Source of the DNA: Akkermansia muciniphila
Lineage (GTDB): Bacteria > Verrucomicrobiota > Verrucomicrobiia > Limisphaerales > BJHT01
Direction of reading: 5' to 3'
DNA length: 64,000 nucleotides
NCBI GenBank assembly: GCA_945861535.1
Contig: CAMAUZ010000013.1
Span: 37,944 to 101,943, forward strand
Shown: piece by piece, positions 4,082 through 41,932 of the stretch
Layout of the letters: each line of letters starts with the position of its first letter
How positions within the stretch are numbered: position 1 is the stretch's first letter
Position numbers and translations under genes: made by a program
The notes under the pieces: model-generated
The model's input: only the letters and a program-made list of their open reading frames with translations
Told to the model about the DNA's origin: nothing
Databases searched by the model: none

Positions 4082-4083
4082 GG

Positions 4084-4177
4084 GTAAAAGACGGGATTCA
4101 AAGTCCAGCGCCCGGGTCGCCACCCGCCCCTGCCCAAATCACGTCCGTCATTTTTACCCCCCATCTTTTACCAGCCT
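4084..4177. repeat. Degenerate relative of the palindromic element family (GGTAAAAGACGGGA ... TTTTTACCCCCCATCTTTTACC)
   Basis: Shares the 14-mer CCCCATCTTTTACC (4159-4172) with the copy at 37043-37056. Also shares GGTAAAAGA(C/T)GGGA with arm A of other copies. The outer GCCGGCAAAAAGATG part is absent. Confidence 0.35.
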
Positions 4178-25228: not shown

Positions 25229-25250
25229 TTCAACCCACGAAATCTCACAT

Positions 25251-25323
25251 TTTTTACCGCACATCTTTTTGCCGGCCGCCCTCCGTCCCGGTGATAGCCG
25301 GCAAAAAGATGTGTGGTAAAAGA
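25251..25323. repeat. Palindromic element copy 1 (inside-out arm order: TTTTTACCGCACATCTTTTTGCCGGC - 20 nt - GCCGGCAAAAAGATGTGTGGTAAAAGA)
   Basis: The arms are reverse complements with 1 mismatch. Lies in the 111-nt spacer between the DUF1552 and DUF1592 genes. Confidence 0.85.
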
Positions 25324-25339
25324 TAACTGAAAAATACCC

Positions 25340-27808
25340 ATGCATTCATCGCTCACCAAACCCTCGCTCTGGCTCGCCGTATTCTTGGCCGCCTGCTCAA
25401 TCTCATCCGCCGCGCCTCTGCGTCAGGATTTCCTGAAGGACTACTGCATCAAATGCCACGGCGCTGAGAAACAGAAGGGCGACCGGCGCTTCGACGCGCT
25501 TACGCCCACAATCAAAACTCCCGACGACGCGTTGGCGTGGCAGGAGATTCTCGATCAGCTCAACAAGGGCGAGATGCCGCCGAAGAAGGAGAAGCAGCCG
25601 CAGACGGCGGAACTGCTCGCGGCTGTGGATGCGATCACCGAATCCGTCGGCGAGGCTGCGCTGCGCTTCAAAGGCACGGCGGCTCACACCGTGCTGCGTC
25701 GGCTTAACAGCTACGAATACCAGCACACCATCGGCGACCTGCTGGGCTTGAACGTTGCGGGCTGGAATCCCGCCGCCGCTTTCCCGCCGGAAACACGCGT
25801 GAACGGCTTCGACAACAATGCCGGCGCGCAGGTGACCTCCGGGATGTTGCTCGATCACTACTTTGTCGCCGCTGAGAAAGCCGTCCAGCGCGCGACGGCG
25901 TTTGGCCCGAAGCCCGAGAGCAAGAGCTACGCGCAGAAGTCGCCGTTCTATTTTGAAGGCAGGAAAAATAATGACCTGCCGAAGCTCTTTCGCACCGACC
26001 GCTACCGCTGGATTTCGGACAAGGGCTACGATGATCTCCAGGCGCGGCATTATCGCGGCGGGCACATCGGCTTCGAGCCGCTGGCGCGCGGCGGCGCACC
26101 GCAGAGCGGGCGTTACACCATCCGCATCCAGGCTGCCGCCATCGATCGCACGCATTCCTACGACTTCCTGAAGGACTTCCGCAACGGCGATCCCATCGTG
26201 ATGGAACTCGCCGCAGTGAATCGCGAGGGCAGCGTCGAGAGCACCGGCAACATCACCACGCAGCGCACGCTCGCGCTGGTGGAACTCACCAGCGAGACAC
26301 CGCAGTGGTTTGAATGGACGGTCAATCTCGATCGCGGTGAAGAGCCGGAGATACGCTTCCGGAATGGCGCGGCCAAGGCCAAGAACCTGGCCTTCAAGTT
26401 GGGCAAGAACGTCAAAGGGCATCCCGAACTGGAAGCGATTGGAAAGCTGGGAAAGGGCGAGATCGCCTTGGCGATGCTCAAGGCCTATCGCGGCCCGAAG
26501 CTCCGCATCTGGGAAATGCAGGTCAAAGGTCCGCAACTCGAGCAGTGGCCGACGCCAGGTCACACGTTGCTTTACGGCAATCTCGCGCCGAATCAGGTCA
26601 GCCGCGCCAACATCCCCGAGCGTCTGCGCGTCTTCGCCGAAGCCGCCTTTCGCCGTCCGTTGCGTTCCGGCGAGCTGGCTCCGATCGAGAAACTGGTCAC
26701 CGCCAAACTTGATGCCGGAATGAAGCCGATGGCCGCACTGCAACTCGGCTTTGAAACGATCCTCTGCTCGCCCGCCTTCCTCCATTTGCATGAAGGAACC
26801 GGCAAGCTGAACGACTACGCGCTGGCTTCACGCCTGTCCTATTTCTTCTGGTCCTCCATTCCGGACCAGACGCTTTACCAGCTCGCCGCCGCCGGCAAAC
26901 TGCACGAGCCCGCGACGCTGGGCGCGCAGGTGGATCGCATGCTCGCCGACCCGAAGTCGCAGCGCTTCGTGCAGAATTTCATCCGCCTCTGGCTGAACCT
27001 CGATCACATCGGCGAGATGCCGGTCTCCACCGACTTCGTCAGCTTCTTCCGCGACAACATCGACGCCGCCATGCGCGCCGAGACCGAGACATTCTTCCGC
27101 CACATCCTCGACAAGAATCTGCCGCCGCGTGAATTCCTCGCCGCCAACTACACCTTCTTGAATCGCGAACTCGCGCTGCACTACGGCCTGCCGCCGCTAG
27201 AGGGCGTGCAGCTGCGCCACGTGTCGCTGCCCAAAGGCGAACGCGGCGGACTGCTCACCCAGGCCTCGTTCCTCACCGCCTCGGCGAATGGCGTGGACAC
27301 CTCGCCCGTCGTGCGCGGCGTCTATGTGCAGGAGAAACTCCTCGGCTACACGCCACCGCCACCTCCGCCCGACGTTCCGCTCATCGAACCCGATGCCAGC
27401 GGGGCCACCAACATCCGCGAGCAACTCGCCAAACATCGCACGATCGAAACCTGCGCCTCCTGCCATCGCAAGATCGACCCCTTCGGCTTCGCGCTCGAGA
27501 ATTTCGACGCCATCGGCGGCTGGCGCGCGAACTACTCGAAAGACCAAAAGATCGACCCCGCCGGCGCGCTGCCCACCGGCGAGAAGTTCACCGGAGTCAC
27601 CGACTTCCGCAGCCTGCTCATCGCCCGGCACGAACAGTTCACCCGCGCGCTCACAGAGAAACTCCTCACCTACGCCCTCGGTCGTGCCCCCGAGTTCTCC
27701 GATCGCGCCGTGATCGACGGCATCATGAAGTACCTCTCGGCCAAGAATGGCGGCTTCAAGGATCTCGTCCGCGCCGTGGTGCTCAGCGATTCCTTCGGGA
27801 GGAACTGA
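25340..27808 (+). CDS. DUF1592/DUF1587/DUF1588/DUF1585-family cytochrome-c-motif protein (pair 4)
   Basis: Own signal peptide MHSSLTKPSLWLAVFLAACSISSA. Motifs: CIKCHGAEKQKGDRRFD, GEMPPKKEKQP, RRLNSYEYQHTIGDLLG, LASRLSYFFWSSIPD, SPVVRGVYVQEKLLG, CASCHRKIDPFGFALENFD. Confidence 0.85.
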   Translation: MHSSLTKPSLWLAVFLAACSISSAAPLRQDFLKDYCIKCHGAEKQKGDRRFDALTPTIKTPDDALAWQEILDQLNKGEMPPKKEKQPQTAELLAAVDAITESVGEAALRFKGTAAHTVLRRLNSYEYQHTIGDLLGLNVAGWNPAAAFPPETRVNGFDNNAGAQVTSGMLLDHYFVAAEKAVQRATAFGPKPESKSYAQKSPFYFEGRKNNDLPKLFRTDRYRWISDKGYDDLQARHYRGGHIGFEPLARGGAPQSGRYTIRIQAAAIDRTHSYDFLKDFRNGDPIVMELAAVNREGSVESTGNITTQRTLALVELTSETPQWFEWTVNLDRGEEPEIRFRNGAAKAKNLAFKLGKNVKGHPELEAIGKLGKGEIALAMLKAYRGPKLRIWEMQVKGPQLEQWPTPGHTLLYGNLAPNQVSRANIPERLRVFAEAAFRRPLRSGELAPIEKLVTAKLDAGMKPMAALQLGFETILCSPAFLHLHEGTGKLNDYALASRLSYFFWSSIPDQTLYQLAAAGKLHEPATLGAQVDRMLADPKSQRFVQNFIRLWLNLDHIGEMPVSTDFVSFFRDNIDAAMRAETETFFRHILDKNLPPREFLAANYTFLNRELALHYGLPPLEGVQLRHVSLPKGERGGLLTQASFLTASANGVDTSPVVRGVYVQEKLLGYTPPPPPPDVPLIEPDASGATNIREQLAKHRTIETCASCHRKIDPFGFALENFDAIGGWRANYSKDQKIDPAGALPTGEKFTGVTDFRSLLIARHEQFTRALTEKLLTYALGRAPEFSDRAVIDGIMKYLSAKNGGFKDLVRAVVLSDSFGRN

Positions 27809-27828
27809 ATGAACAGGAGACAGGCAGC

Positions 27829-27875
27829 AGGAGACAGGAGACAGCCTGTCCACTGCCTCCTTTCTCCTGTCTCCT
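27829..27875 (+). other. Perfect 13-bp inverted repeat (AGGAGACAGGAGA / TCTCCTGTCTCCT, 21-nt loop) in intergenic spacer; possible terminator or regulatory hairpin
   Basis: Verified base by base. Embedded in CAGGAGA heptamer repeats (27814, 27828, 27835). No downstream T-tract. Confidence 0.4.
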
Positions 27876-27881
27876 AGAACT

Positions 27882-29315
27882 ATGAACATCGCCCGCCGAT
27901 TCTTCTTGAAGCTCCTCCCGCTGCTTGCGTGGCGGGGCCACTCCCTGCTGGCTGCCGACTCCAAATCGCAGCCGCTTTTCCTTGGACAAGGAACGATGTC
28001 CGGTGAAGTCACCGATTCCACCGCTCTGCTGCAAACCCGCCTGACGCTCGCTGCGCAACTCGATGCCGACGGCGATCTGCCGGGTGCCGCGGGCGTGGCG
28101 TGTTTTGAATGGAGCACGCACCCGGACTTCCGCGATGCGCAGCGCACTCCGTTTCAACCGGCGGCTGAAAAACGCGACTTCATCGTGCGTGCCGAACTCA
28201 CCGGCCTGAAGCCGAACACCACTTACCATTACCGCGCCGTCTATGGTGTCACGGAGGCCGCGGCCCAGGCCGGACCGAGTTGTTCGTTCAAGACCTTGGC
28301 GGGCGGAGCCATCAATACGCCGGTGCGCTTCATTGTCGGCAGTTGCATGAACTACAACAAATTCCTGCACGGCAAGAAGGGCAAAGCGGGCGGCCCTCTG
28401 ACCGCCACGGATGAGGACAAACGCCTCGGCTATCCATCCTTCGACGCGATGCTGAAACTGCATCCGGACTTCTTCGTCGGCACGGGTGACATCGTTTATT
28501 ACGACAACCCGATGCGCGTGGCCGAGACCGTCCCGCAGTTGCGCAAATGCTGGCACGAGCAGGCTCGGTTTCCTCGGCTGATCGACTTCTTCCGCAGTGT
28601 CCCCGCGTATTGGTCAAAGGACGACCACGACTTTCGCTACAACGAATCGGATAACTCCACCGACCATCTGCCGCTTCCGAAAACCGGCATCGACATGTTC
28701 CGCGAGCAATTGCCCCTCGTGGCCACCGGCAGCGACAAGCCCACCTACCGCACGCATCGTGTCAGTAAGGATCTGCAAATCTGGCTCACCGAAGGACGCG
28801 ACTATCGCTCACCGAATGAGATGGCTGACGGCCCTCAAAAATCGCTCTGGGGCGCGGAGCAGCGCGAATGGTTGAAGACGACGCTGAAGGCGAGTGATGC
28901 GAAATGGAAAATCCTCATCTCGCCCACGCCGATGGTCGGGCCCGACGACCTAAAGAAGATCGACAATCACGCCGACCTCAGCGGCTTCCGCCACGAAGCG
29001 GATGCCTTCTTCGCCTGGCTGAAGGAGAACAAGATCGGACATTTCACAATCATCTGCGGAGACCGTCACTGGCAGTATCACAGCATCCATCCATCGGGTG
29101 TCGAAGAGTTCGCCTGCGGTGCGCTGAACGATGAGAATTCCCGAATGGGCGTCGCGCCCGGCGACAAGAATGGCTCCGACCCGCAAGCGCTGGTCAAACA
29201 GGAATACACCTCTCCGACCCCCAACGGTGGCTTCCTGCAAATCACCGCTGGAGATCACCTGCTCATCGAGCATTTTGACTCGCGAGGAAAGCAGCTTCAC
29301 CGCGTCAACCGATAG
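27882..29315 (+). CDS. PhoD-like metallophosphatase (alkaline phosphatase D family)
   Basis: RR-containing signal MNIARRFFLKLLPLLAWRG. Motifs FFVGTGDIVYYDN, WSKDDHDFRYNES and ICGDRHWQYHS. Confidence 0.7.
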   Translation: MNIARRFFLKLLPLLAWRGHSLLAADSKSQPLFLGQGTMSGEVTDSTALLQTRLTLAAQLDADGDLPGAAGVACFEWSTHPDFRDAQRTPFQPAAEKRDFIVRAELTGLKPNTTYHYRAVYGVTEAAAQAGPSCSFKTLAGGAINTPVRFIVGSCMNYNKFLHGKKGKAGGPLTATDEDKRLGYPSFDAMLKLHPDFFVGTGDIVYYDNPMRVAETVPQLRKCWHEQARFPRLIDFFRSVPAYWSKDDHDFRYNESDNSTDHLPLPKTGIDMFREQLPLVATGSDKPTYRTHRVSKDLQIWLTEGRDYRSPNEMADGPQKSLWGAEQREWLKTTLKASDAKWKILISPTPMVGPDDLKKIDNHADLSGFRHEADAFFAWLKENKIGHFTIICGDRHWQYHSIHPSGVEEFACGALNDENSRMGVAPGDKNGSDPQALVKQEYTSPTPNGGFLQITAGDHLLIEHFDSRGKQLHRVNR

Positions 29316-29335
29316 CATCCGAGCCAACCATCACC

Positions 29336-30652
29336 ATGCCCGCATCCAATCTTCCGTCCTATTCGTCCACCCGCCGTTTTTTCCTGCGAGCCACGGGAGT
29401 GAGCCTTGCCCTTCCGCTGCTCGAATCTCTGGGCGCGCGCGTCTTCGCTCAGAACTCCGCCGTCGGCACTTTGCCGGGGAAGGCGGCGGGCGCGGGGCGT
29501 CCCAAGCGGATGGTGTGCATCGGCAACTTGCTCGGCTTTTATCCTCAGGCGTTTTTCCCGGCGAGAACGGGAGCGGACTACGATCTGCCTGAGTCCATCG
29601 AAGCGCTGAAGCCGCATCAGAAGGACTTCACGCTTTTCTCCGGGCTCGACCACGGCGTGAAGGGCGGGCACTTCGCGATGAGTTCCTTCCTCAGCGGCGT
29701 GCGCACCGCGGATGCCAAGGGCATGCCCGAGGGCAACATCACCGTGGACCAGCGGGCGGCGGAAACGATGGGTGCTGCCACGAGGTTTCCTTCGCTCGCC
29801 CTTGGATCCGAGAGCGGCATTCATGGCGGCTGCCTCATGTCGTGGACACGCAGCGGCACGCGGGTGCCGCCGATCAGCACGCCGCGCGAGCTGTTCCGGA
29901 AACTGTTTGTCTCCGATGGTGCCGCCGACCTCGCAGCGTCGCTGGATCGCCTCGATATGAAAGGTTCGATCCTTGACGCGGTCCAGGGCGATGCAAAAAC
30001 CCTCGAACGCCGTCTGGGCCAGCGGGACAAGGAGAAGCTGGACGAGTATTTCACCTCTGTCCGAGATGTGGAAAAGCAGATCGAGCTGCGCCGCAAGTGG
30101 GCCGGCGTGCCCAAGCCTGATCCGAGAATGCCGGAGCCAGCGAACAAGGATTTTGTATCCGACCTGCCGGTGATGTATGACTTGATCGCGCTCGCCCTGC
30201 AGACTGATTCCACCCGCATCGCCACTCTGGAGATTGGCGGAGATTTCGAGGCTTCGGCCTTCGATTTGAAGGCCGGTTATCACAGCCTCTCGCACCACGG
30301 ACAGCGTGAGGAAGCGATCAAGGGCCTCATCAAGATGGAACGCTATCAGATCGAGCAGTTCGCGCGGTTCATCGCCAGGCTCAAATCCATCGAGGACGGC
30401 GCGGGCACGCTGCTGGATCACTCGATGGTTCTCTTCGGCAGCGGCATGGGCAACGCCAACTCGCACACGAACAACAACCTGCCGATCGTCCTGGCCGGCG
30501 GCGGTTTCAAGCACGGCGAGCACCGGACGTATCCGGCGAAGGGGCTCGGCCGCCAGCCCTTGTGCAATCTCTATCTGACCATGCTCCATCGCTTCGGCGC
30601 GGAGGTGAAAGCGTTTGGCACCAGCACCGGCACACTCACCGGCCTCGCATGA
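29336..30652 (+). CDS. DUF1552 domain protein with twin-arginine signal (pair 5)
   Basis: STRRFFLRATGVSLALPLLES Tat motif. LQTDSTRIATLEI, GYHSLSHHGQ and GSGMGNANSHTNNNLPIVLAGGG blocks. Close paralog of the 23969 gene. Confidence 0.8.
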   Translation: MPASNLPSYSSTRRFFLRATGVSLALPLLESLGARVFAQNSAVGTLPGKAAGAGRPKRMVCIGNLLGFYPQAFFPARTGADYDLPESIEALKPHQKDFTLFSGLDHGVKGGHFAMSSFLSGVRTADAKGMPEGNITVDQRAAETMGAATRFPSLALGSESGIHGGCLMSWTRSGTRVPPISTPRELFRKLFVSDGAADLAASLDRLDMKGSILDAVQGDAKTLERRLGQRDKEKLDEYFTSVRDVEKQIELRRKWAGVPKPDPRMPEPANKDFVSDLPVMYDLIALALQTDSTRIATLEIGGDFEASAFDLKAGYHSLSHHGQREEAIKGLIKMERYQIEQFARFIARLKSIEDGAGTLLDHSMVLFGSGMGNANSHTNNNLPIVLAGGGFKHGEHRTYPAKGLGRQPLCNLYLTMLHRFGAEVKAFGTSTGTLTGLA

Positions 30653-30731
30653 GCCGGCAAAAAGATGGGCGGTAAAAGATAGGAGGATTTTGCAAGCGAT
30701 TCTATTTTTCACCGCCCATCTTTTTGCCGGC
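30653..30731. repeat. Palindromic element copy 2
   Basis: GCCGGCAAAAAGATGGGCGGTAAAAGAT - loop - TTTTTCACCGCCCATCTTTTTGCCGGC. The stem has 21 perfect bp. Starts at the base after the DUF1552 TGA. The internal ATG frame hits TAG after 5 codons. Confidence 0.9.
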
Positions 30732-30743
30732 TAAAGACCACCC

Positions 30744-31529
30744 ATGCCAATCCACCGCACCATCGAGACCGTCCGCCCGACTCAATCCGAGTTCGGTCAA
30801 ATCGCCTTTGACGTGATGAAGTGCGTGTATGAGATCCACAATGAATTCGGCCGCTTCTTTGATGAAGCGGTTTACAAGCGCGAACTCGCCGCGAGGATGC
30901 CTGGCGTGGAACTGGAGGTCCCTGTCACCGTCTCCCATAAAACGTTCTCGAAGCTCTACAAGCTCGACGTTCTGGCGCACCGGCGAGGCGTTTTCGAGTT
31001 CAAGGCTGCCGAGACTATTGTTCCCCGTCATCGCGGCCAGACCATCAACTCCCTGCTCCTCTTTGACCTCCCGCACGGCAAACTCATCAACGTCCGGCCC
31101 GAGCGAGTCAACGATGAGTTCGTGAACTGCCACCTGCGGCTGGAGGCGTTGCGAAATCCATCCGTGGACACAGCCAGTTTCGTTTCCACCGTTGCCGGAG
31201 CAGCCTTCTTTCATGACCACCTGCTCACCTTGATCCGCGACTGGGGTTCCGGCCTTGAGACCGGGCTTTACGAAGAAGGACTCTCTCACTTTCTTGGTGG
31301 CGATGAGCGGGCTCTACAGCCTGTGCCGGTGATGGGATCCAAAGGACATCTGCACGATCAAAAGATGCGTCTGTTGGCACCGGATGTCGCCTTCAAGCTC
31401 ACCGCCTTTCCCGATCGGCTGGAGGCCTTTGAGACGCATGCCCGACGCCTACTTCAGCATACTTCGCTTAAAGCCATTCATTGGGCCAACATCACTCATA
31501 GCCATGTTACCTTCACGACCATCCACTAA
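30744..31529 (+). CDS. GxxExxY-like / PD-(D/E)XK-fold protein with an extra C-terminal region (function unknown)
   Basis: FGRFFDEAVYKRELAARMPGVELEVPVTVSHK...YKLDVLAHRRGVFEFKAAE...GKLINV follows the GxxExxY-family layout (acidic LDV plus ExK). The identification is by eye only. Confidence 0.45.
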   Translation: MPIHRTIETVRPTQSEFGQIAFDVMKCVYEIHNEFGRFFDEAVYKRELAARMPGVELEVPVTVSHKTFSKLYKLDVLAHRRGVFEFKAAETIVPRHRGQTINSLLLFDLPHGKLINVRPERVNDEFVNCHLRLEALRNPSVDTASFVSTVAGAAFFHDHLLTLIRDWGSGLETGLYEEGLSHFLGGDERALQPVPVMGSKGHLHDQKMRLLAPDVAFKLTAFPDRLEAFETHARRLLQHTSLKAIHWANITHSHVTFTTIH

Positions 31530-31536
31530 CTTTTTC

Positions 31537-31610
31537 GCCGGCAAAAAGATGTGCGGTAAAAAATGGGGACTCCTGTTTTTCCTATTTTTCACCGCCCATC
31601 TTTTTGCCGG
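31537..31610. repeat. Palindromic element copy 3 (overlaps the start codon and signal peptide of the downstream gene)
   Basis: GCCGGCAAAAAGATGTGCGGTAAAAAATGGGGA - loop - TTTTTCACCGCCCATCTTTTTGCCGG. Starts 8 nt after the upstream TAA. Confidence 0.9.
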
Positions 31611-34035
31611 ACCTCCGGAGATCCGACGTTTCCTCACCACCTATTGCAACGACTGCCACGGCGCGGAAAAACAAAAGGGCGATCGGCGCTTTGATAAGCT
31701 GCTGCTGCCCGCCACCAAGGTGGACACGCTGATCGATCTCAAAGACATCCTCGATCAAATCAACCTCGGCGAAATGCCGCCGAAAAAATCGAAGCAACCG
31801 TCGCAGCTGGAGCAAAAGGTCTTTATCGAGCAGGCGACTCTCGCGCTCACCGAAGGTCGTGAGAGTCTCGCCAGCACCGATGGCAGCAGCGTGTTGCGTC
31901 GTCTCAACCGCCGCGAATACATCAACACCATCGGCGACCTGTTCGCGATGAATATGGCGGCCTTCGATCCCACCACGAAGTTTCCGCGCGACCAGTCCGC
32001 CGAGCACATGGAGAATCTCGGCGATGTGCTCCAGACCTCGGGCTATCTGTTGGAGCAATATCTCGATGCGGCGGACGCCATCGTTAAGAAGGCGTTCGCA
32101 GTTCAAAAGCAGCCGGATGAGCGCGTTTGGAACTTCCGCGAGAACTTCAAGCCGCAGCAGGAATTAAGCGGCCCGCATCGCCGCCTCCAAAACGCATTTA
32201 TCGGCCTTTACGAATGCATGGCCACCCCAAACCACGAGGGCGGCTACGGCTTCATCAGCGACTTTCAGCAAGGAGTGCCGGTGGACGGAATCTACGAGAT
32301 TCGCGTCCTTGCCCAGGCCATGAACCGGCAGCATCCGTATGATCCGAAAATCTTCGGGACCGACTCACGCGAGCCTTTCCGCCTCGGCTTGGTGCCCGGC
32401 GATGCGAAAGCCGGTCCGCTGTATCAGCCGCAGCCGCTCCAGCCCATGCTCGCCGAGCAGGCTCTGCAAGATGGCGAACCCGAATGGCACACGATGAAGG
32501 TCTGGCTGGATGCCGGACATACACCGCGATTTGTTTTCCTCAATGGCCCGAAAAGCGCACGCAGTTCCTGGGCCCGAATCGTGGAATACCACAAGGACAA
32601 ATGGCCGGCGACCACATCGAAGCGGGACCGCAAGAACGGCCTCGGCATCGTCGAAAATCGCATTCTCAGCATCGTCGAAGGAAAAGTGCCGCACATTCGC
32701 ATCAGCGAGGTGCAGATTCGCGGACCCATCGTCGAGCAGTGGCCGCCCGCTCCCCAGCAGGCCGTTTTGGGAAAGACTGCCTTCGCTCCGGAGAAGATGC
32801 GCGAAGTCCTCCAATCCTTCGCCGACCGAGCTTATCGCCGTCCGGCCAGCCAGGCCGAAGTGGATCGACTCATGGCCGTCGCCAGGAAACGCACGAGCAC
32901 CGGCCGTTCGCCGCAGGAAGGTCTGAAGGACGCTCTCAAGGCAGCGCTCTGCTCGCCCGCCTTCATCTATCTCTCGCAGGATGCCGTGGAGCCAAAAAGT
33001 GACTCGAAAGCACGTCCCAAGCTCACCGCCTACGCGCTCGCCTCGCGGCTGTCCTATTTCCTCTGGTCAACCATGCCGGATGCGGAGTTGCTCCGGCTGG
33101 CGCACAGTCAGGAGCTAACCAAGCCAGCGGTGCTCATTGCACAGACGCGCCGCATGTTGGCCAGCCCGCGCTCCGAGGCCTTCGTGTCGGGCTTTCTCGA
33201 CAGTTGGCTGAACCTCCGCAGCCTCGGAGGCATGCCGCCGGATCGGAAGGATTTTGAAACGTATTACTCCAAGGGCCTGGAGCACGCCTTCAAGCAAGAG
33301 ACACGGCTTTTCATGCGCGACCTCATCGAGCGCGATGCCAGCATCGTAAACTTCCTCAACAGCGACTACGGCTTCGTCAATCAACCGCTCGCCACGCACT
33401 ACGGTCTCGGTGAACTCGGCGATCCGGCCAAGGCGCATGAGTTCCGCAAAGTCAGCTTCAAGACCGACAAGCGCGGCGGCCTGCTCGGCATGGGCTCCGT
33501 GCTCACCATCACCGCCAACGGCATCGAGACTTCGCCCGTCGTGCGTGGGGTCTATCTGCTGGAAAACATCCTCGGCACGCCGCCGCCGCCGCCGCCCGAT
33601 GACGTGCCTGCTATCGATCCCGATGTGCGCGGAGCCAAATCCATGCGCGAGTTGCTCAGCAAACATCGCGAATCGCCGAACTGCGCCGGCTGCCATCAAA
33701 AGATCGACCCACTCGGATTCGCGTTGGAGAACTTTGATCCCATCGGAGGCTGGCGGACGAGCTATGGCAAAACCCCGATCGACACCGCCGGAGAACTGCC
33801 CAGCGGCGATAAGTTCTCGGACGTCGCCGGCCTGAAGGGAATCCTCGTCAAACGCCAGGCCCTCTTCGCCCGGATGCTCACCGATCGCCTCCTCACCTAC
33901 GCTTGCGGTCGCCGCATCGGTGCGCTCGACGAGCCCACCGTGGCAAGAATCGTTGCCGAAATGCCGAGGCACAAACACGGCCTCCGCTCACTTCTCGAAG
34001 CCGTAGTGACGAGCGAACTGTTCCTCAGCCGTTGA
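31549..34035 (+). CDS. DUF1592/DUF1587/DUF1588/DUF1585-family cytochrome-c-motif protein (pair 5)
   Basis: ATG 31549 is the first in-frame start after the upstream gene. N-terminus MCGKKWGLLFFLFFTAHLFAG, then CNDCHGAEKQKGDRRFD, GEMPPKKSKQP, RRLNRREYINTIGDLF, LASRLSYFLWSTMPD, SPVVRGVYLLENILG, CAGCHQKIDPLGFALENFD. Confidence 0.85.
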   Translation: MCGKKWGLLFFLFFTAHLFAGPPEIRRFLTTYCNDCHGAEKQKGDRRFDKLLLPATKVDTLIDLKDILDQINLGEMPPKKSKQPSQLEQKVFIEQATLALTEGRESLASTDGSSVLRRLNRREYINTIGDLFAMNMAAFDPTTKFPRDQSAEHMENLGDVLQTSGYLLEQYLDAADAIVKKAFAVQKQPDERVWNFRENFKPQQELSGPHRRLQNAFIGLYECMATPNHEGGYGFISDFQQGVPVDGIYEIRVLAQAMNRQHPYDPKIFGTDSREPFRLGLVPGDAKAGPLYQPQPLQPMLAEQALQDGEPEWHTMKVWLDAGHTPRFVFLNGPKSARSSWARIVEYHKDKWPATTSKRDRKNGLGIVENRILSIVEGKVPHIRISEVQIRGPIVEQWPPAPQQAVLGKTAFAPEKMREVLQSFADRAYRRPASQAEVDRLMAVARKRTSTGRSPQEGLKDALKAALCSPAFIYLSQDAVEPKSDSKARPKLTAYALASRLSYFLWSTMPDAELLRLAHSQELTKPAVLIAQTRRMLASPRSEAFVSGFLDSWLNLRSLGGMPPDRKDFETYYSKGLEHAFKQETRLFMRDLIERDASIVNFLNSDYGFVNQPLATHYGLGELGDPAKAHEFRKVSFKTDKRGGLLGMGSVLTITANGIETSPVVRGVYLLENILGTPPPPPPDDVPAIDPDVRGAKSMRELLSKHRESPNCAGCHQKIDPLGFALENFDPIGGWRTSYGKTPIDTAGELPSGDKFSDVAGLKGILVKRQALFARMLTDRLLTYACGRRIGALDEPTVARIVAEMPRHKHGLRSLLEAVVTSELFLSR

Positions 34036-34086
34036 TTCCTTGACCCAACGAAAACGACACAATCCTTTATGAAGCCAACCTGCATA

Positions 34087-34160
34087 GCCGGCAAAAAGAT
34101 GGGCGGTAAAAAATGGGGACTTCTCTTCTCCTTATTTTTTACCGCCCATCTTTTTGCCGC
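34087..34160. repeat. Palindromic element copy 4 (overlaps the start and signal peptide of the sulfatase fragment)
   Basis: GCCGGCAAAAAGATGGGCGGTAAAAAATGGGGA - loop - TTTTTTACCGCCCATCTTTTTGCCGC. Confidence 0.9.
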
Positions 34161-34722
34161 TCCTCCCGCCGACAAAGCGCCGGGCAAACAATACAACGTG
34201 CTGTTCATCGCCGTCGACGACTTGAACGACTGGGTCGGGGCCTTCGGCGGCGCGCCCCAAAAGAAGTCGGCGACGCCCAAGCTGGATAAATTCGCGAAGA
34301 GCGGCTCGGTCGTTTTCCAGCAGGCGAATTGCGCGGGCCCGGTCTGTGGCCCGTCGCGCTCGGCTTTGCTGTCGGGCTTTATGCCGAATCGGTCGGGTGT
34401 TTACGGCAACGCTCATAACATGCGCAACTCCGCGCTCGTGCAGACCCACCTCACGCTGCCGGAGTATTTTTCGAAGCATGGCTACCGCACGCTCTCAAGC
34501 GGCAAGATTTTCCATAAACATGCCGGCGACGAGGGCCATTGGGCGTTTGACCAGTGGGTCGCCACTGAAGGCGGCAGCGGTTCGCAGGTTGATCCCCAGC
34601 GTCTGACCTCCCGGAGTCGCAACCTGATTGACGGCAAGCCCGCGCCATTTGCCCCGGCCAAGGGCGAGGGCAACGCCGACGGCGAAGGCGGGGGCACGGA
34701 ATTCTCCTGGGGACCGGCCTGA
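34099..34722 (+). pseudogene. Sulfatase, N-terminal half only (truncated)
   Basis: NVLFIAVDDLNDW and the CGPSRSALLSGF (CxPxR) signature are present. The ORF ends after about 207 codons, whereas the intact sulfatases here are about 450-540 aa. Alternative start ATG 34069. Confidence 0.7.
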
Positions 34723-34949
34723 AGTAGTCGCGGTGCGCTCAAGCATGAATCAGTCGCTGCAAATGGATTGCCCCGCCCCGAAATCGTGGCGCGTCTGGCT
34801 GCCGCCGCCGCCGAATGGAACCGCGGCCTCATCGCCCCCGCCTTCGGCAACAATCCTTTCGGCGGCCTCATCAACCGCACCATACTGGAGAAAAATTCGA
34901 CCCCTTGAAGCGCAATGAGGACTACCAGTCTTTCGCAACCACGCATCCA

Positions 34950-35501
34950 ATGAACCCACGCACCCTTCTTTTATCCATCGCTCTTTCAGCCAGCGCCGTC
35001 GCCGGTTTCGCGCAGGACTCCGCGGATGTCATCGTCTATGGCTCCACGCCCGGCGGGTTCTGCGCGGCCATCGCTGCGGCGCGCGAGGGGGCTTCGGTTA
35101 TTTTGCTGGAGCCGACGGAGCACGTCGGCGGGCTGAGCACGGGCGGGCTGAGCCACTGCGACTCGAATCAGATGCGGCGGGAGACTTTGATGGGACTCTT
35201 CGACGAGTGGCATCGGCGCGTGGTGAAGGACTACACGGACCGCGGGCTTGCAGCTCCCTACGATGCGGCGCTTAAGGACACCGCACGCTGGACGTTTGAG
35301 CCGCATGTGGCGATGCGCGTGACGACGGCGATGCTCAAGGAAGCGGGCGTGGTGGTGCGGACCGGGCGGTATTTGAAATCGGTCACGAAAGAAGGGCCGC
35401 GCATCACTTCGCTCACCGCGAAGGACGGCAAGTTCACGGCGAAAGTATTCGTGGACGGCTCCTACGAAGGCGACCTCATGGCTGCCGCTGGCGTGGACTG
35501 A
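34950..35501 (+). CDS. FAD-dependent oxidoreductase, N-terminal part; ends at an in-frame TGA
   Basis: Signal-like MNPRTLLLSIALSASAVAGFA. Dinucleotide-binding VIVYGSTPGGFCAAIAAAREG...LEPTEHVGGLSTGG. Confidence 0.7.
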   Translation: MNPRTLLLSIALSASAVAGFAQDSADVIVYGSTPGGFCAAIAAAREGASVILLEPTEHVGGLSTGGLSHCDSNQMRRETLMGLFDEWHRRVVKDYTDRGLAAPYDAALKDTARWTFEPHVAMRVTTAMLKEAGVVVRTGRYLKSVTKEGPRITSLTAKDGKFTAKVFVDGSYEGDLMAAAGVD

Positions 35502-35570
35502 ACGATTGGCCGCGAGGGGCGCGCCGAGTTCGGTGAATCCTACGCGGGGAAGCAGTATCCCAAAAAGAAA

Positions 35571-37022
35571 ATGGACATCAGCGGCTTCGATGACGCGGGC
35601 AAACTGCTGCCGCTCGTGACGACCAGCGACGCCGGGCCGGACGAAGCGGGCGACAAGAACATCATGACCTACAGCTTCCGGCTCTGCCTCACGCGAGACC
35701 CGGCCAAGATGGTTTCCATGCCCGCGCCGACGAACTACAACCCCGCCCGATTCGAGCTGGCGCGCCGCGCGCTCAAAGTCGGTGTCAAAGCGGGCTTCGA
35801 CCTCTACCCGTTGCCGGGCAACAAGCTCGACGGCAACAACTCCATTCACGGACAGGTTTCCCTCGGCCTTGTCGGTGCCGGCAACGACTGGCACAGCGCC
35901 GATGAAGCAGGCCGGCAGAAGATTTGGGAGGACCACAAACAATACACGCTTGAGTTCCTGCACTTCCTCCGCACCGACCCCGCCGTGGCGCCGAAAGTCC
36001 GTGGCGAGTTTGCCGGCCTCGGTCTTTGCCAAGACGAGTTTGCGGCGACCGCCCACTTTCCGCCTGCGCTCTATGTGCGCGAATCGCGGCGGATGAAGGG
36101 CCTGCATGTGATCTCGCAAAAGGACATCATTACCTCGCCGGAAAAGGCCGACCCCATCGCCGTCTCGTCGTTCCCGATTGATTCGCACGACTGCCAGCGC
36201 GTCGCGTTGAAAGACGGTGGCGTCATCAATGAGGGCACGATTTTTCCCGTGCGAGTCCCCGGCAGCAAAGTGGGCTACGCCTACCATGTGCCCTATCGCT
36301 CCGTGCTGCCGCAGGCCAGCCAATGCAACAACCTGCTCGTGCCCGTCGCGCTTTCCTCCACGCATGTCGCGATGTCATCGCTTCGGATCGAAGGCGCATG
36401 GATGGCCATCGGCCAGGGCGCGGGTGTCGCCGCGGCGCTGGCGGCGAAACAATCCGTCGCCGTGCAAGACCTGCCCTATCCCGTCCTGCGCCAGCGACTC
36501 CTCGCGCAAGGGCAAGTGCTCGACCTCCCCGCAGTTTCCAAACCAGCGGCGGCGAAGGAGGCTGACTTCATCCCCGTGAAGTCGCTCCCCGGCATCGTGC
36601 TCGACGACGCCGATGCGCAACTCGTCGGCGCATGGACGCAGTCCACGAACTTCAAACCACACATCGGCAGCGGCTACCGCGTCCACGGAGCCAAGGACGC
36701 CCGCGCCGACGGCACAGCCACCGCCACCTTCCGCGTCAAAGTGCCGACGTCCGGCGAATACCAGGTGCTGATGTCCTACTCCGCGCATGAAACCCGCGCC
36801 AAAAACGTGCCCGTCACCATCGTCAGCGGCACCCGCGAGACGAAGCTCACCGTGGACCAAACCAAGCCCATGCCCGCCGGTCAGCACTTTCAGCCCATCG
36901 GCACGGCGACGCTCACATCGGATGGCGAAACAACTCTTCGAATCCAAACCACCGACACCACCGGTTTCGTCATCCTCGACGCCGTGCAGTTGGTTTTGAG
37001 CCGGCAAAAAGATGGGCGGTAA
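35571..37022 (+). CDS. Continuation of the same FAD-dependent oxidoreductase (same frame; open from 35502)
   Basis: Frame identical to 34950..35501. Codons 35502-35570 read TIGREGRAEFGESYAGKQYPKKK without a stop. The last 7 codons and the TAA lie inside palindromic element copy 5. Confidence 0.7.
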   Translation: MDISGFDDAGKLLPLVTTSDAGPDEAGDKNIMTYSFRLCLTRDPAKMVSMPAPTNYNPARFELARRALKVGVKAGFDLYPLPGNKLDGNNSIHGQVSLGLVGAGNDWHSADEAGRQKIWEDHKQYTLEFLHFLRTDPAVAPKVRGEFAGLGLCQDEFAATAHFPPALYVRESRRMKGLHVISQKDIITSPEKADPIAVSSFPIDSHDCQRVALKDGGVINEGTIFPVRVPGSKVGYAYHVPYRSVLPQASQCNNLLVPVALSSTHVAMSSLRIEGAWMAIGQGAGVAAALAAKQSVAVQDLPYPVLRQRLLAQGQVLDLPAVSKPAAAKEADFIPVKSLPGIVLDDADAQLVGAWTQSTNFKPHIGSGYRVHGAKDARADGTATATFRVKVPTSGEYQVLMSYSAHETRAKNVPVTIVSGTRETKLTVDQTKPMPAGQHFQPIGTATLTSDGETTLRIQTTDTTGFVILDAVQLVLSRQKDGR

Positions 37023-37074
37023 AAAATGTGATGAAATGGATTCCCCATCTTTTACCGGCCATCTTTTTGCCGGC
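37000..37074. repeat. Palindromic element copy 5
   Basis: GCCGGCAAAAAGATGGGCGGTAAAAAATG - loop - TCCCCATCTTTTACCGGCCATCTTTTTGCCGGC. Contains the upstream gene's stop codon (37020-37022). Confidence 0.9.
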
Positions 37075-37096
37075 CTGTATGCCCAACATTACTCCT

Positions 37097-39691
37097 ATGA
37101 TCACACGCCTCACATTCCTCGGTTTGATTCTCGGTTTATCCTTCTCGTCCGCAGATGCTCAGAATGCCGCCGTCGGTTCGCCCCGGCTGGTTCTGGATGC
37201 GGACACGGGCATAACCATTCGCGAGGGCTTCGACGCTGAATTGCTCTACGAGGTGCCCAAGTCTCAGGGCTCGTGGGTGGCGATGGCGTTTGATCCGAAA
37301 GGCCGGCTCATCGTTTCCGATCAGGATGACAAGGGTGTGTTCCGCGTGACGCTGCCCACCGGGGGTGCCGGAATCAAAGTCGAGAGCCTGCCCGGATTTC
37401 CTTACGAGCCGGTGGACTGGGGGAGGCGCAAGGTCGGCGGTGCGTATGGCTTTCTCTACGCGTTCGATAGTCTCTACATGGCGAACATGCGGGGCTTTTA
37501 CCGCATCCGCGACACAGATGGGGACGACCAGTTTGACGAATTCACGCTGCTGAAGAAACTCGACATGGGCTACGAGCACTCGGCGCACTGCATCATCCAG
37601 ACGGCTGACGGCAAGGGGCTTTATCTGGTGAGCGGAAACTTCACCCGAGTGCCAAAAGGGACCGTTCCCTCGCAGCCGCCGGTATGGCAGGAGGACACGC
37701 TCATGCCCGTGATTCCCGACCCTTCGGGCCACGCCGTGGGACTCAAGCCTCCGGGCGGCTGGATTTGCCGCATTTCACCCGACGGCAGCGACTGGAGGAT
37801 GATTGCGTCCGGCTTCCGCAACTCGGTGGACATCGCGCTGAATCGCGAGGGCGAACTTTTCACTTACGATTCCGACATGGAGTTTGATGTTGGCGTCCCG
37901 TGGTATCGGCCCACGCGCATCAATCACGTCACCAGCGGCGCGGAGTTTGGCTGGAGGGCGAACTCGGGGGTGTGGCTGGACTATTTCGCCGACAGCCTCG
38001 GCTCGGTGCTCGACATCGGCCCCGGCTCCCCGACGGCCATCAGCTTCGGGCATCACTCGAAGTTTCCGGCGGAGTTTCAGGACAAGCTCTTCATCTGCGA
38101 CTGGACGTTCGGCACGATTTTCACCGTGGAGCTGCAGGAAAGCGGTTCGAGCTACACCGGCACGAAGTCGGAGTTTCTCCACGGCAGCCCGCTGAACATC
38201 GCGGCGATGCGCTTCGGGCCGGACGGTGCGATGTATTTCGTCACCGGCGGACGCACGACAGCCTCGCGGCTCTATCGAGTCCGCCACACAGGCGCGCCGA
38301 CGACGGGCGTGCCGAGGACACTGCTGGCCAACAGCGAACTGCGGGTGTTGCGGCATTCGTTGGAGAAATTCCATGCACGCGGCGAGAGCGCCGACGCCGT
38401 GGAAAAGGCATGGCCGCATCTCGCGCACGCTGACCGCAGCATTCGCTACGCAGCGCGCATCGCCATCGAGAACCAGGGCGTGGCGCTCTGGCAGGAAATG
38501 GTCTTCGCGGAGAAGAACCCGCGCGCGGCGATTTATGCCGCCATCGCGTTGACCCGCCATGGCGACAAATCCCTGTCCGGGCGGCTGATTGACAAGCTCG
38601 CCGAGGTGCCATTTGGCTCGCTTGCGCAAGAAGACCAGCTCGCGCTGCTCCGCGCCTACGCGCTGTGTTTTATGCGATTTGGCCTGCCCGCCGAGGATAA
38701 GACGGCGGCAGTCATCGCCAGGCTGGATGCTCATTTCCCGTCTAAGGATGACACGGTGAACGCCGAACTATGCCGTGTGCTGTCATCGCTCGATGCTCCC
38801 ACAGTGGCGCGGAAAACCATCGGGCTGATGAAAGCCACCCGCGTCGAGACAGTGGCCTACGACAAGGCCATGCTGGGCCGTCACGAGTATGGCGCGGCCA
38901 TTTTGAAGATGATGGCCAACACGCCCAACACGCGAAATATCCACTACGCGTATTTCCTGCGGCGCGTGCGAAGCGGGTGGACGCTCGAGGACCGCAAATA
39001 CTTCTTCGGCTGGCTGAACGAGGCGTTGGCCAAGGACGGCGGCAAGAGCTTTGCCGGATACATCCGGGCCATTCGCAAGGACGCCATCGCGCAACTGGAG
39101 ACCAAGGATGTCGAGCTGATGGCCGGGTTGCTGGAGGACTTTCCCGCTTTCGACCTTTCCAAACTCCCGAAGCCCAAAGGCCCGCCTGTCGCATGGACGG
39201 TGGAGACGGCGATGAACCTGTTTGAGCCGGAGCTTCGCGGCCGGGATTTCGCGAACGGGAAGAAGATGTTCGCCGCCGGATACTGCATCGCCTGTCATCG
39301 CGTCGGCGGCGAAGGCGGCCACTCTGGTCCTGACCTCGGCTCGCTGGGAAATCGCTTTTCCATCCGGGACATTCTCGTCGCCATCTGTGAACCCAGCGCC
39401 TCGGTCTCCGACCAATACCTCGCCAGCGTGGTGAAGCTCAAAGACGGCGACACGCTCAACGGCCGCCTCATTTTCAAGAACGACAAGGAAGTCGGCGTCG
39501 CCACGAATCCGTTTGATTTGAACCAGGTCACGAAAGCGCCGGCGGACCAGGTGGTCGGCATCGCTTCCTCGCAAGTTTCGATGATGCCATCGGAGCTGCT
39601 CTCAGGCATGAACCGCGATGAGCTGATGGACCTGATGGCCTATCTGCTCTCAGGCGGAAACTCGCAGCACAAGGCTTTCAAAAAGGAATGA
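37097..39691 (+). CDS. PVC-type heme-binding protein: putative membrane-bound dehydrogenase (beta-propeller) + HEAT-like repeats + C-terminal cytochrome c domain
   Basis: Signal peptide MITRLTFLGLILGLSFSSADA. C-terminal GYCIACHRVGGEGGHSGPDLGSLG heme c motif. Alternative starts are 37079 or 37028. Confidence 0.75.
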   Translation: MITRLTFLGLILGLSFSSADAQNAAVGSPRLVLDADTGITIREGFDAELLYEVPKSQGSWVAMAFDPKGRLIVSDQDDKGVFRVTLPTGGAGIKVESLPGFPYEPVDWGRRKVGGAYGFLYAFDSLYMANMRGFYRIRDTDGDDQFDEFTLLKKLDMGYEHSAHCIIQTADGKGLYLVSGNFTRVPKGTVPSQPPVWQEDTLMPVIPDPSGHAVGLKPPGGWICRISPDGSDWRMIASGFRNSVDIALNREGELFTYDSDMEFDVGVPWYRPTRINHVTSGAEFGWRANSGVWLDYFADSLGSVLDIGPGSPTAISFGHHSKFPAEFQDKLFICDWTFGTIFTVELQESGSSYTGTKSEFLHGSPLNIAAMRFGPDGAMYFVTGGRTTASRLYRVRHTGAPTTGVPRTLLANSELRVLRHSLEKFHARGESADAVEKAWPHLAHADRSIRYAARIAIENQGVALWQEMVFAEKNPRAAIYAAIALTRHGDKSLSGRLIDKLAEVPFGSLAQEDQLALLRAYALCFMRFGLPAEDKTAAVIARLDAHFPSKDDTVNAELCRVLSSLDAPTVARKTIGLMKATRVETVAYDKAMLGRHEYGAAILKMMANTPNTRNIHYAYFLRRVRSGWTLEDRKYFFGWLNEALAKDGGKSFAGYIRAIRKDAIAQLETKDVELMAGLLEDFPAFDLSKLPKPKGPPVAWTVETAMNLFEPELRGRDFANGKKMFAAGYCIACHRVGGEGGHSGPDLGSLGNRFSIRDILVAICEPSASVSDQYLASVVKLKDGDTLNGRLIFKNDKEVGVATNPFDLNQVTKAPADQVVGIASSQVSMMPSELLSGMNRDELMDLMAYLLSGGNSQHKAFKKE

Positions 39692-39887
39692 TCCCACGCA
39701 CCACATTCCTGGTAAGAATAGATCCGCTGGAGCGGAGCCAAAGCCAACGCCCACATCCGCACCCTCGCCCTCGAAAACCTGACGCTTGCGAGGTGTCCAC
39801 CAAACACAGGCAAGCGCCCGCGGATAACCCCTCCCAAAATCAATCATTCGTGTTCGACAAACCTCCGCGATTCAAAATCAATCCGCC

Positions 39888-41804
<1,917 letters not shown>

Positions 41805-41857
41805 AAATTTCTGAACGTAGCAAGATGACATGCTCACACACAAGGACCGGGGTTTGG

Positions 41858-41932
41858 GCCGGCAAAAAGATGGGCGGTAAAAGATGGGGACTGCTGTTCT
41901 TCCTGTTTTTCACCACACATCTTTTTGCCGGC
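41858..41932. repeat. Palindromic element copy 6 (overlaps the start and signal peptide of the downstream gene)
   Basis: GCCGGCAAAAAGATGGGCGGTAAAAGATGGGGA - loop - TTTTTCACCACACATCTTTTTGCCGGC. Confidence 0.9.

Follow-up and report, generated by a model that had tools for sequence, protein, structure and literature searches.

The classical repetitive extragenic palindrome (REP) is an imperfect palindrome of 20–40 nt that carries a GTAG or CGTC tag at one end (PMC3733652), and REPIN/RAYT systems combine REP doublets with a REP-associated tyrosine transposase (Nunvar 2010; Bertels and Rainey 2011; PMC5581495, PMC8266576, bioRxiv 10.1101/2021.07.10.451892). Palindromic repeats have also been found within coding sequence: the Yersinia palindromic repeat YPAL/RU-2 forms part of the predicted signal peptide of YPO1552 (Delihas 2007/2008, PMC2229807), and the Rickettsia palindromic elements make in-frame fusions into proteins (Ogata 2000). 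Here we analyzed a 64,000-nt stretch of contig CAMAUZ010000013.1 from an assembly assigned to Akkermansia muciniphila (GCA_945861535.1). This whole stretch is referred to as the window, and all coordinates are positions in it. It contains a family of ~75-bp palindromes, two of which enclose a gene for a two-domain PD-(D/E)XK nuclease of the GxxExxY family. We lean towards the view that the palindromes are the repeat partner of this gene (30744–31529), an arrangement with the layout of REPIN/RAYT and an unrelated enzyme.

The 25-nt arm sequence GCCGGCAAAAAGATGGGCGGTAAAA occurs 12 times in the window at up to 3 mismatches, compared to 0 occurrences in 100 shuffled sequences, and the 12 arms pair up into six palindromes. 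The 12-mer GGCAAAAAGATG occurs exactly 12 times against an expectation of 0.17. All six palindromes of ~75 bp listed in a first-pass annotation of this stretch were recovered at the positions given there. The internal direct repeat it had noticed in each arm was found as well: within an arm a ~12-nt unit occurs twice in direct orientation, as GGCAAAAAGATG and GGTAAAAGATGG in the window, and up to three times elsewhere. The palindrome has the order unit-unit, centre, inverted unit-unit, and the arm reads GCCGGCAAAAAGATGGGCGGTAAAA(G)ATGGGGA; a single arm is a direct repeat and forms no hairpin of its own. In an inverted-repeat search the arms of the six palindromes measured 25–31 nt, were 88–94% complementary and had 9–25 nt between them. 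Folding of each copy as RNA, which the annotation had proposed, gave stable structures for all six, with energies of −41 to −53 kcal/mol and z-scores of −6.6 to −11.

All six copies are found within 17 kb around the nuclease gene, the solo copies lying between −5.5 and +10.4 kb of it. Copy 2 (30652–30732; −53.2 kcal/mol) directly follows the stop codon of a DUF1552 gene (30652) and ends 12 nt before the nuclease ATG, and copy 3 (31537–31611) starts 7 nt past the nuclease stop, its ATG at 31549 opening the next gene. Copy 4 (34087–34161) contains the ATG at 34099 that opens a sulfatase open reading frame (ORF; 34099–34722), and copy 6 (41858–41932) the ATG at 41870 of gene 41870–43444, for which the palindrome encodes MGGKRWGLLFFLFFTTHLFAG. 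Copy 5 (37000–37074) includes the last 7 codons and the stop (37020–37022) of an FAD-oxidoreductase ORF, the next gene beginning ~30 nt downstream; the frame encoded by its arm is not signal-like, stops ~75 codons on and is out of frame with the downstream gene. Copy 1 (25249–25324, arms 25249–25276 and 25297–25324; −48.1 kcal/mol) is located between the stop of a DUF1552 gene (25228) and the start of a DUF1592 gene (25340). The uniform arm layout reported before holds for five copies; in copy 1 the order is swapped, with a right-type arm first and the outer GCCGGC ends toward the centre. Copies 1 and 2 are intergenic and their reading frame stops after five codons (MCGKR in copy 1, which is therefore non-coding). 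The earlier statement that every copy abuts or overlaps a start or stop codon is correct as to gene boundaries and falls short for copies 3, 4 and 6, which contain start codons and encode N-termini.

A diverged seventh copy is present at 4065–4176 (GGTTGGCAAAAGAGTGAGGGTAAAAG ... CATTTTTACCCCCCATCTTTTACCAGCC, 62 nt making up its centre), with units similar to the GGTAAAAGAT variant found beside more distant nuclease homologues. A second, unrelated palindrome of similar build, with iterated CAGGAGACAGG units in arms of 77–81% complementarity, fills the gap between a DUF1592 stop (27808) and a PhoD start (27882) at 27813–27875, and may serve as repeat partner to a different gene in another part of the genome. 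No Rfam family matched the element at gathering or permissive thresholds, apart from sub-threshold matches to generic miRNA hairpins. The window contains no tRNAs, and a tRNA-linked reading of the palindromes was dropped. A full-text literature search for the 12-mer returned unrelated primers only.

The first-pass annotation had seen no transposase and no feature type that would explain the palindromes; it had overlooked the gene bracketed by copies 2 and 3 (30744–31529, + strand). The 261-aa product scores 52.6 bits against Pfam PF13366 (PDDEXK_3; cut-off 22, aa 20–119) and 52.5 bits against NCBIfam TIGR04256 (GxxExxY; cut-off 35). Residues E41, Y44, D75, E85 and K87 are invariant across 31 homologues, E85 and K87 forming an E85-F-K87 motif. 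An AlphaFold2 model (pLDDT 90.8) consists of two consecutive alpha-alpha-beta3-alpha-beta2 domains, with the catalytic D75 and E85-F-K87 on strands E68–78 and E82–87, and the best PDB folds in Foldseek are Cas4 SSO0001 (E = 1.5e-4), MGME1 and the double-nuclease CinB. By its catalytic residues and modelled fold the protein belongs to the PD-(D/E)XK superfamily. Canonical GxxExxY proteins are ~125–130 aa long and have a single domain. The N-terminal domain of the window protein resembles them in passing both cut-offs and in keeping the catalytic residues; in the 261-aa subfamily it is followed by a second domain, which shares its topology and is probably inactive. This C-terminal domain lacks the E-x-K motif and carries GSGLETGLYEE, close to GPGFLESIYEAAL of the canonical short family member; an internal duplication is suggested by the topology and the GxGLExxLYEE motif. 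With one active and one degenerate nuclease domain the enzyme would probably be a nickase.

The subfamily is widespread. We found 512 relatives at E ≤ 1e-5 in a 90%-clustered collection, mostly of exactly 261 aa, and at least 370 clusters at 50% identity of the two-domain family in an exhaustive library (E ≤ 1e-30), nearly all with 258–272 aa. Collections of plasmids and phages contained no homologue, and PADLOC as well as a PDB sequence search with the nuclease gave nothing useful. The function of PF13366 is listed as 'Unknown' (PMC3424549), and literature searches on GxxExxY/PF13366 and on REPIN/RAYT plus nuclease returned no description of a nuclease-palindrome pairing.

We analyzed the association of gene and palindrome across genomes, the comparisons covering the window and 10-kb flanks of related contigs, with taxonomic labels taken from the bins of metagenome-assembled genomes (MAGs). 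A scan of a genome collection for the DNA pattern GGCAAAAAGATG-N30-60-CATCTTTTTGCC gave 61 loci, almost all from Verrucomicrobiota and Planctomycetota (Chthoniobacteraceae, Opitutaceae, Verrucomicrobiaceae, Prosthecobacter, Gemmataceae, Pirellulales, Fuerstiella, Kuenenia), and in most copies the arm is a tandem of two 12-nt units. The expectation that further copies should exist was borne out by related copies in many genomes other than the source genome. The family is not confined to one genome, its 12-nt core being common to both phyla. A phmmer search of all ORFs in the 61 loci detected a nuclease homologue in 11, always adjoining the match; overall, 11–12 of these loci, selected by DNA pattern only, carry a homologue there. 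All nine complete homologues (9/9), as well as the window gene, have a palindrome on both sides: the gene sits between two complete palindromes, 7–30 nt from its start and stop. Loci found by protein only (L062–L064, L145–L147) are bracketed likewise, and the downstream palindrome is present even beside a convergent neighbour (L146, L064). In 80 further loci from a protein-seeded metagenome scan, evaluated by a strict gapless inverted-repeat score, strong inverted repeats were present in 32 of 76 upstream and 30 of 72 downstream flanks, in comparison to 2 of 200 control windows, and both flanks of the nuclease share a 10-mer in 55 of 68 loci. Most of the homologues from this protein search are bracketed on either side. 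The single canonical short GxxExxY member examined had no flanking palindrome. Among the genes scanned, the nuclease gene is the only one with ends matching the palindromes.

Some of these loci show further features. Four palindromes are arrayed at a 354-nt period at L030 2878–4214 (Novipirellula MAG), and arrays with a period of ~175 nt lie on both sides of the nuclease gene at L046 4080–5720 (Opitutaceae MAG), which suggests local tandem amplification of larger units. At L034 5699–6607, on a contig assigned to a Pirellulaceae bin, the nuclease and the window protein share 82% identity, far above the expectation between phyla; either horizontal transfer or a mis-binned contig would account for this. 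Genes for extracytoplasmic function (ECF) sigma factors are located just upstream of the nuclease or its DUF1552 neighbour at L062 4923–6391, L063 7074–8557, L064 218–1456 and L146 4087–6161, and the uncharacterised or FecR-like gene beside each of them possibly encodes an anti-sigma factor.

Palindrome and nuclease co-vary. Metagenome homologues with at least 64% identity mostly have GGCAAAAAGATG-type palindromes, and homologues at 46–72% identity have the same palindrome architecture made of other units: GGCTAAAAATG, GGTAAAAGATT (with GACAGAAAAATG named alongside it as variant unit), GGTTATAGATT, CAGGAAAATG/GAGGAAAATA, GGAAAGGAAAATAA, and GACAGAAAAATGG in three repeats per arm. Dispersed copies match, at the variable positions, the variant that flanks the resident gene, as observed in the window, an Opitutaceae MAG, a Gemmataceae MAG and CAWCSW01. 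A Verrucomicrobiaceae MAG (GCA_016713245.1) has two nuclease paralogues at different loci, 79% (L062) and 66% (L146) identical to the window protein, each bracketed by palindromes with a different inner unit. That arm complementarity should persist among copies, as the annotation had anticipated, is seen in 50 core-type copies, where it is kept through compensatory changes: 89.6% of cells pair between the arms, in comparison to 81.7% after shuffling and at most 54% when the arms are slid, and 134 cells are changed on both arm sides compared to 62 in the shuffles, a value reached by 0 of 500 shuffles.

The left arm reads AAAAAG-ATG, and in copies 3, 4 and 6 this ATG (31549, 34099, 41870) opens a long downstream ORF, encoding a DUF1592/PSCyt protein, a sulfatase and a putative glycoside hydrolase, respectively. 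All likely genes between 19.5 and 47 kb are on the + strand (DUF1552/DUF1592-PSCyt pairs, PhoD, sulfatase, FAD oxidoreductase, cytochrome c). Translation of the palindrome gives M(G/C)GK(K/R)WGLLF(F/S)LFFT(A/T)HLFA(G/A), with the signal peptide MGGKKWGLLFFLFFTAHLFAG. As AAA/AAG (Lys) is the reverse complement of TTT/CTT (Phe/Leu), an A-rich palindrome reads first positively charged and then hydrophobic in either orientation. The unit reads AAAAAG-ATG-Lys-Lys and its reverse complement encodes a Phe/Leu-rich peptide, so that a gene with a copy at its 5' end obtains from it an A-rich leader together with a start codon, a positive n-region and a hydrophobic h-region; the three frames of the right arm read HLFA, IFLP or SFC. 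In the DUF1592/PSCyt-family gene (31549–34035, + strand) the first 21 codons, MCGKKWGLLFFLFFTAHLFAG, are palindrome, and no alternative in-frame start precedes the CxxCH motif. The element peptide ends 12 residues before the Pfam PSCyt1 domain, which begins at aa 33, and the paralogue 25340–27808 has an ordinary signal peptide in this place. In gene 41870–43444 the peptide MGGK(K/R)W-GLLFFLFFT(A/T)HLFA-G ends before ELVVYPPVPG, where the signal peptides of nearly all others among the 120 best orthologues end. The predicted N-termini encoded by the element have the properties of Sec-type signals: a positive n-region, a hydrophobic h-region and a cleavage region at the position of the orthologues' signal peptides. 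Judged by their reading frames, the palindromes have been co-opted as start and signal peptide of at least three genes for putative secreted enzymes in the window. The 'IFLP' peptides had been ascribed to spurious ORFs only; since copies 3, 4 and 6 open long ORFs in the + frame, their peptides there are the real start and signal peptide of these genes. In a crude census of 43 solo copies based on gene calls, gene starts were not clearly preferred over gene ends; 9 copies lay inside stop-to-stop ORFs and the others at mixed boundaries.

In two orthologues of gene 41870–43444 (P0166, P0174) the annotated N-terminus reads MKARFPSFTAHFFVGPRSLSLL..., in which a peptide resembling an arm precedes a signal peptide of the ordinary kind. 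This points to a mis-called start codon and, in another lineage, to a palindrome directly upstream of the native start.

Copies can be old, as shown by their occurrence at orthologous positions. A Chthoniobacteraceae MAG (L016/L063) that is syntenic with the window at ~80–88% protein identity has palindromes at three of these positions (copies 2, 3 and 4, in L016), two of them encoding signal peptides. Orthologues of copy 3 with the same palindrome-encoded gene start occur in L016, L057 and L062, and the order DUF1552-nuclease-DUF1592 with an element-encoded signal peptide is also found in Verrucomicrobiaceae and Prosthecobacter loci. L149, a 98% relative, retains copies 4, 5 and 6.

Copies are also turned over. 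Among the 120 best orthologues of gene 41870–43444 the intact element peptide occurs only in those of 100% and 98% identity, and nearly all others have ordinary, varied signal peptides that end at this ELVVYPPVPG junction too. Five members of the ≥90% identity cluster have the element peptide and five have ordinary ones, which means that copies are gained or lost. An 82% orthologue (P0130) has a decayed right arm that still encodes a hydrophobic segment. A DNA-level empty site for copy 6 was not recovered, the 86% and 82% orthologues lying in non-syntenic contexts, so the argument for gain or loss rests on protein N-termini.

Two differences between the window and L149 concern genes next to copies 4 and 5. 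The sulfatase ORF 34099–34722 is truncated by a 947-bp deletion relative to L149 (L149 1914–2860), where the sulfatase is intact (534 aa) with the same element-encoded N-terminus. Identity to L149 is 92.6% to the left and 97.7% to the right of the junction near 34716/34718, which suggests a recombination or deletion boundary. An in-frame TGA at 35499–35501, in place of a TGG (Trp) codon in L149, breaks the FAD-oxidoreductase/Golvesin_C gene up into ORFs 34815–35501 and 35571–37022 and is either a nonsense mutation or a sequencing error.

We compared the family with the defining properties of known elements. The former assignment to a REP/MITE-type element is supported by dispersed palindromes at gene boundaries, but fails on what defines classical REPs and MITEs (miniature inverted-repeat transposable elements). 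The arms carry no GTAG/CGTC tag, and a single arm is a direct repeat in place of a REP unit. The flanked gene matches PF13366/TIGR04256 and not Y1_Tnp, the domain of the REP-associated Y1 (HUH) transposase, and none of the 17 ORFs at 19.5–47 kb scanned against Pfam matched Y1_Tnp. Inverted arms as in MITEs are present, but the flanks (CATGA/TAAAG, TTTTC/CCTCC, GCATA/CCTCC, TTTGA/CTGTA, TTTGG/GAACT) show no direct duplication, in line with the former observation that target-site duplications are absent. No DDE transposase was found among the window genes scanned or the called genes of related loci (contig stretches). Without tag, Y1 or target-site duplication the family fails membership in both classes. 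Integron attC sites require RYYYAAC ... GTTRRRY cores, and the element ends in GCCGGCAAAAAG / CTTTTTGCCGGC; no integron integrase was seen among the window genes scanned, and the palindrome-bounded genes are large chromosomal genes; an attC reading was dropped. An intrinsic terminator has a short GC-rich stem, a 3–8-nt loop and a U-tract, and the elements, with stems of 25–31 bp and 9–25 nt between the arms, are not called as such.

Despite this failed membership, the palindrome family plausibly works in a similar way to REP/MITE systems. As in REPIN/RAYT, a chromosomal gene with one or few copies is enclosed by inverted doublets able to form hairpins, dispersed copies match the gene-flanking variant, repeat and enzyme co-vary between lineages, and the pair is a long-term resident of its lineage, with no copies on plasmids or in phages. 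In contrast to REPIN/RAYT, the enzyme is a two-domain PD-(D/E)XK nuclease instead of an HUH/Y1 transposase, and the cutting-and-joining chemistry of RAYTs cannot apply. The arms are tandem repeats of an A-rich 12-nt unit instead of GTAG/CGTC-tagged small hairpins, the copy number appears to be units to tens, clustered near the gene, and the hosts are Verrucomicrobiota and Planctomycetota. MITEs and Correia-type elements share with the family that they are short inverted-repeat elements at gene boundaries able to alter neighbour expression, but here we find no target-site duplication, no parent insertion sequence with a DDE transposase, and arms of iterated units. As with YPAL and the Rickettsia elements, palindromic repeats become protein-coding sequence. 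Unlike in those cases, the repeat provides leader, start codon and whole signal peptide for several unrelated enzymes, the fusion spans orders for one gene and is polymorphic among near-identical orthologues for another, and the associated enzyme gene is identified.

If the nuclease gene has its repeat partner in the palindromes, the nuclease may copy these. It would bind the repeated units, on duplex DNA or on an extruded hairpin or cruciform, and would then cut, probably one strand, after which host repair or replication would copy the palindrome to a new site; alternatively, the gene-plus-palindrome unit could recombine with another palindrome after the cut. Copies would be found at gene boundaries because they persist only where they are harmless. 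Several observations weigh against this interpretation. What is seen in the sequences is that gene and palindrome always occur together, and copying by the nuclease would be a step beyond that. PD-(D/E)XK nucleases cut without joining, so that a host pathway has to be assumed. The copy number looks low: the other 47 kb of the window hold one diverged copy only, and we counted 1–8 exact-core loci per MAG in comparison to hundreds for REPINs. Positions conserved over ~15–20% protein divergence mean that movement is rare. In 13 of 68 protein-seeded loci the two flanks have no 10-mer in common, and no nuclease gene was seen in the contig stretches examined from Fuerstiella or Novipirellula. The C-terminal domain alone gave Foldseek matches of E ≥ 0.1 only, the non-significant top matches again being PD-(D/E)XK nucleases, and an hhalign comparison of the N-terminal and C-terminal halves was not significant. 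Finally, the spacer between units (alignment columns 16/66, the first spacer position) is unpaired in 26 of 50 copies, which agrees no less with protein-binding sites than with a hairpin.

Other explanations were considered. We regard it as unlikely that gene and palindromes form a mobile cassette, in which recombination between the flanking palindromes excises a circle of the gene with one of them, the other staying behind alone in the manner of a solo long terminal repeat. The circle would re-enter at another palindrome or at a site cut by the nuclease, and solo copies would be footprints or landing pads and not made in trans. The two flanking palindromes are indeed direct copies of ~75 bp, solo copies cluster around the gene in the window, gene contexts vary between lineages, one MAG has two paralogues, and palindrome arrays lie on both sides of the gene in L046. 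The 82% identical nuclease in the contig binned as Pirellulaceae hints at horizontal transfer, binning error being another possibility. However, that the gene has the same position between DUF1552 and DUF1592 genes in Chthoniobacteraceae, Verrucomicrobiaceae and Prosthecobacter loci speaks for a long residence by vertical descent; neither plasmid or phage copies nor an empty/filled allele of the nuclease gene were found, and precise replacement of a signal peptide by a new solo copy is not obviously explained by excision footprints.

The unpaired spacer would also fit a reading of the palindromes as operators and of the protein as a sequence-specific regulator of itself and of a local secreted-enzyme regulon, using its nuclease fold for binding; units and protein would then co-vary as in any regulator/operator pair. 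The dyad arrangement of 12-nt repeats is typical of binding-site arrays, copies overlap the translation starts of co-directional exported-enzyme genes and cluster around the nuclease gene, and ECF sigma and anti-sigma genes are near in several loci. This is nonetheless improbable in our view, as the catalytic D...E-x-K residues are invariant across the family and a palindrome follows the stop codon even where the next gene is convergent. Copies also occur inside coding sequence and at 3' ends, their presence varies among ≥90% identical orthologues with the whole signal peptide swapped, and neighbour genes are entirely different between lineages.

We consider a function as RNA just as improbable. 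In that case hairpins in polycistronic transcripts would set mRNA ends, stability, termination or translation, with the start codon buried in a stem of −41 to −53 kcal/mol, and the nuclease would process them or be a passenger. The very stable folds, the position between co-directional genes and the compensatory arm changes are in agreement with this; the A-tract together with the GC-rich inner stem and the T-tract looks like a bidirectional terminator, and some PD-(D/E)XK folds are RNases, with tRNA-splicing endonuclease among the weak fold matches. Yet a palindrome folds alike on both strands, so that folding energy is no evidence of transcription, and in the window copies the transcribed strand has A·C mismatches that would be G·U on the opposite strand, which shows no sign of selection for an mRNA hairpin. 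The elements are not among the terminators called by a scan, which showed no enrichment of terminator-like sites (24 compared to 18.2 ± 4.1). Copies inside three ORFs cannot be efficient terminators, and no Rfam family matches.

An ordinary REP/MITE family without a tie to the neighbouring gene, as the dispersal at gene boundaries and absent target-site duplication might indicate, or a signal peptide conserved among paralogues, as the similar peptides of three copies might, is already contradicted and hardly credible: dozens of independent loci show the gene bracketed in this manner, with different units, GTAG/CGTC tag and Y1 transposase are missing, three copies are non-coding, with stops after five codons in copies 1 and 2, and the proteins sharing the peptide are unrelated, their orthologues carrying other signal peptides; the paralogue version was dropped.

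Returning to the palindromes as repeat partner of the nuclease gene, we put forward as a tentative possibility that they represent a previously undescribed class of chromosomal replicator, in which, across the Planctomycetes-Verrucomicrobia-Chlamydiae (PVC) superphylum, a two-domain PD-(D/E)XK nuclease with a single active site propagates palindromes made of iterated 12-nt units and co-evolves with them. Such a class would be mechanistically unrelated to the HUH-based REP systems, and as a by-product it would yield a portable 'start codon plus secretion signal' module able to re-target or re-start genes for exported enzymes. In PVC annotations, the palindromes account for many short ORFs of the 'IFLP/HLFA' kind that are spurious, and for misplaced start codons. 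For the widespread two-domain GxxExxY/PDDEXK_3 family, listed as of unknown function, the association provides a first functional lead. The old idea that small palindromic repeats create new exported proteins is now directly testable, in orthologues of ≥90% identity that differ only in the origin of their signal peptide. If the proposed partnership is true, it would be a second, independently evolved long-lived intragenomic partnership of the REPIN/RAYT type, and this layout would be convergent and no quirk of HUH transposases.

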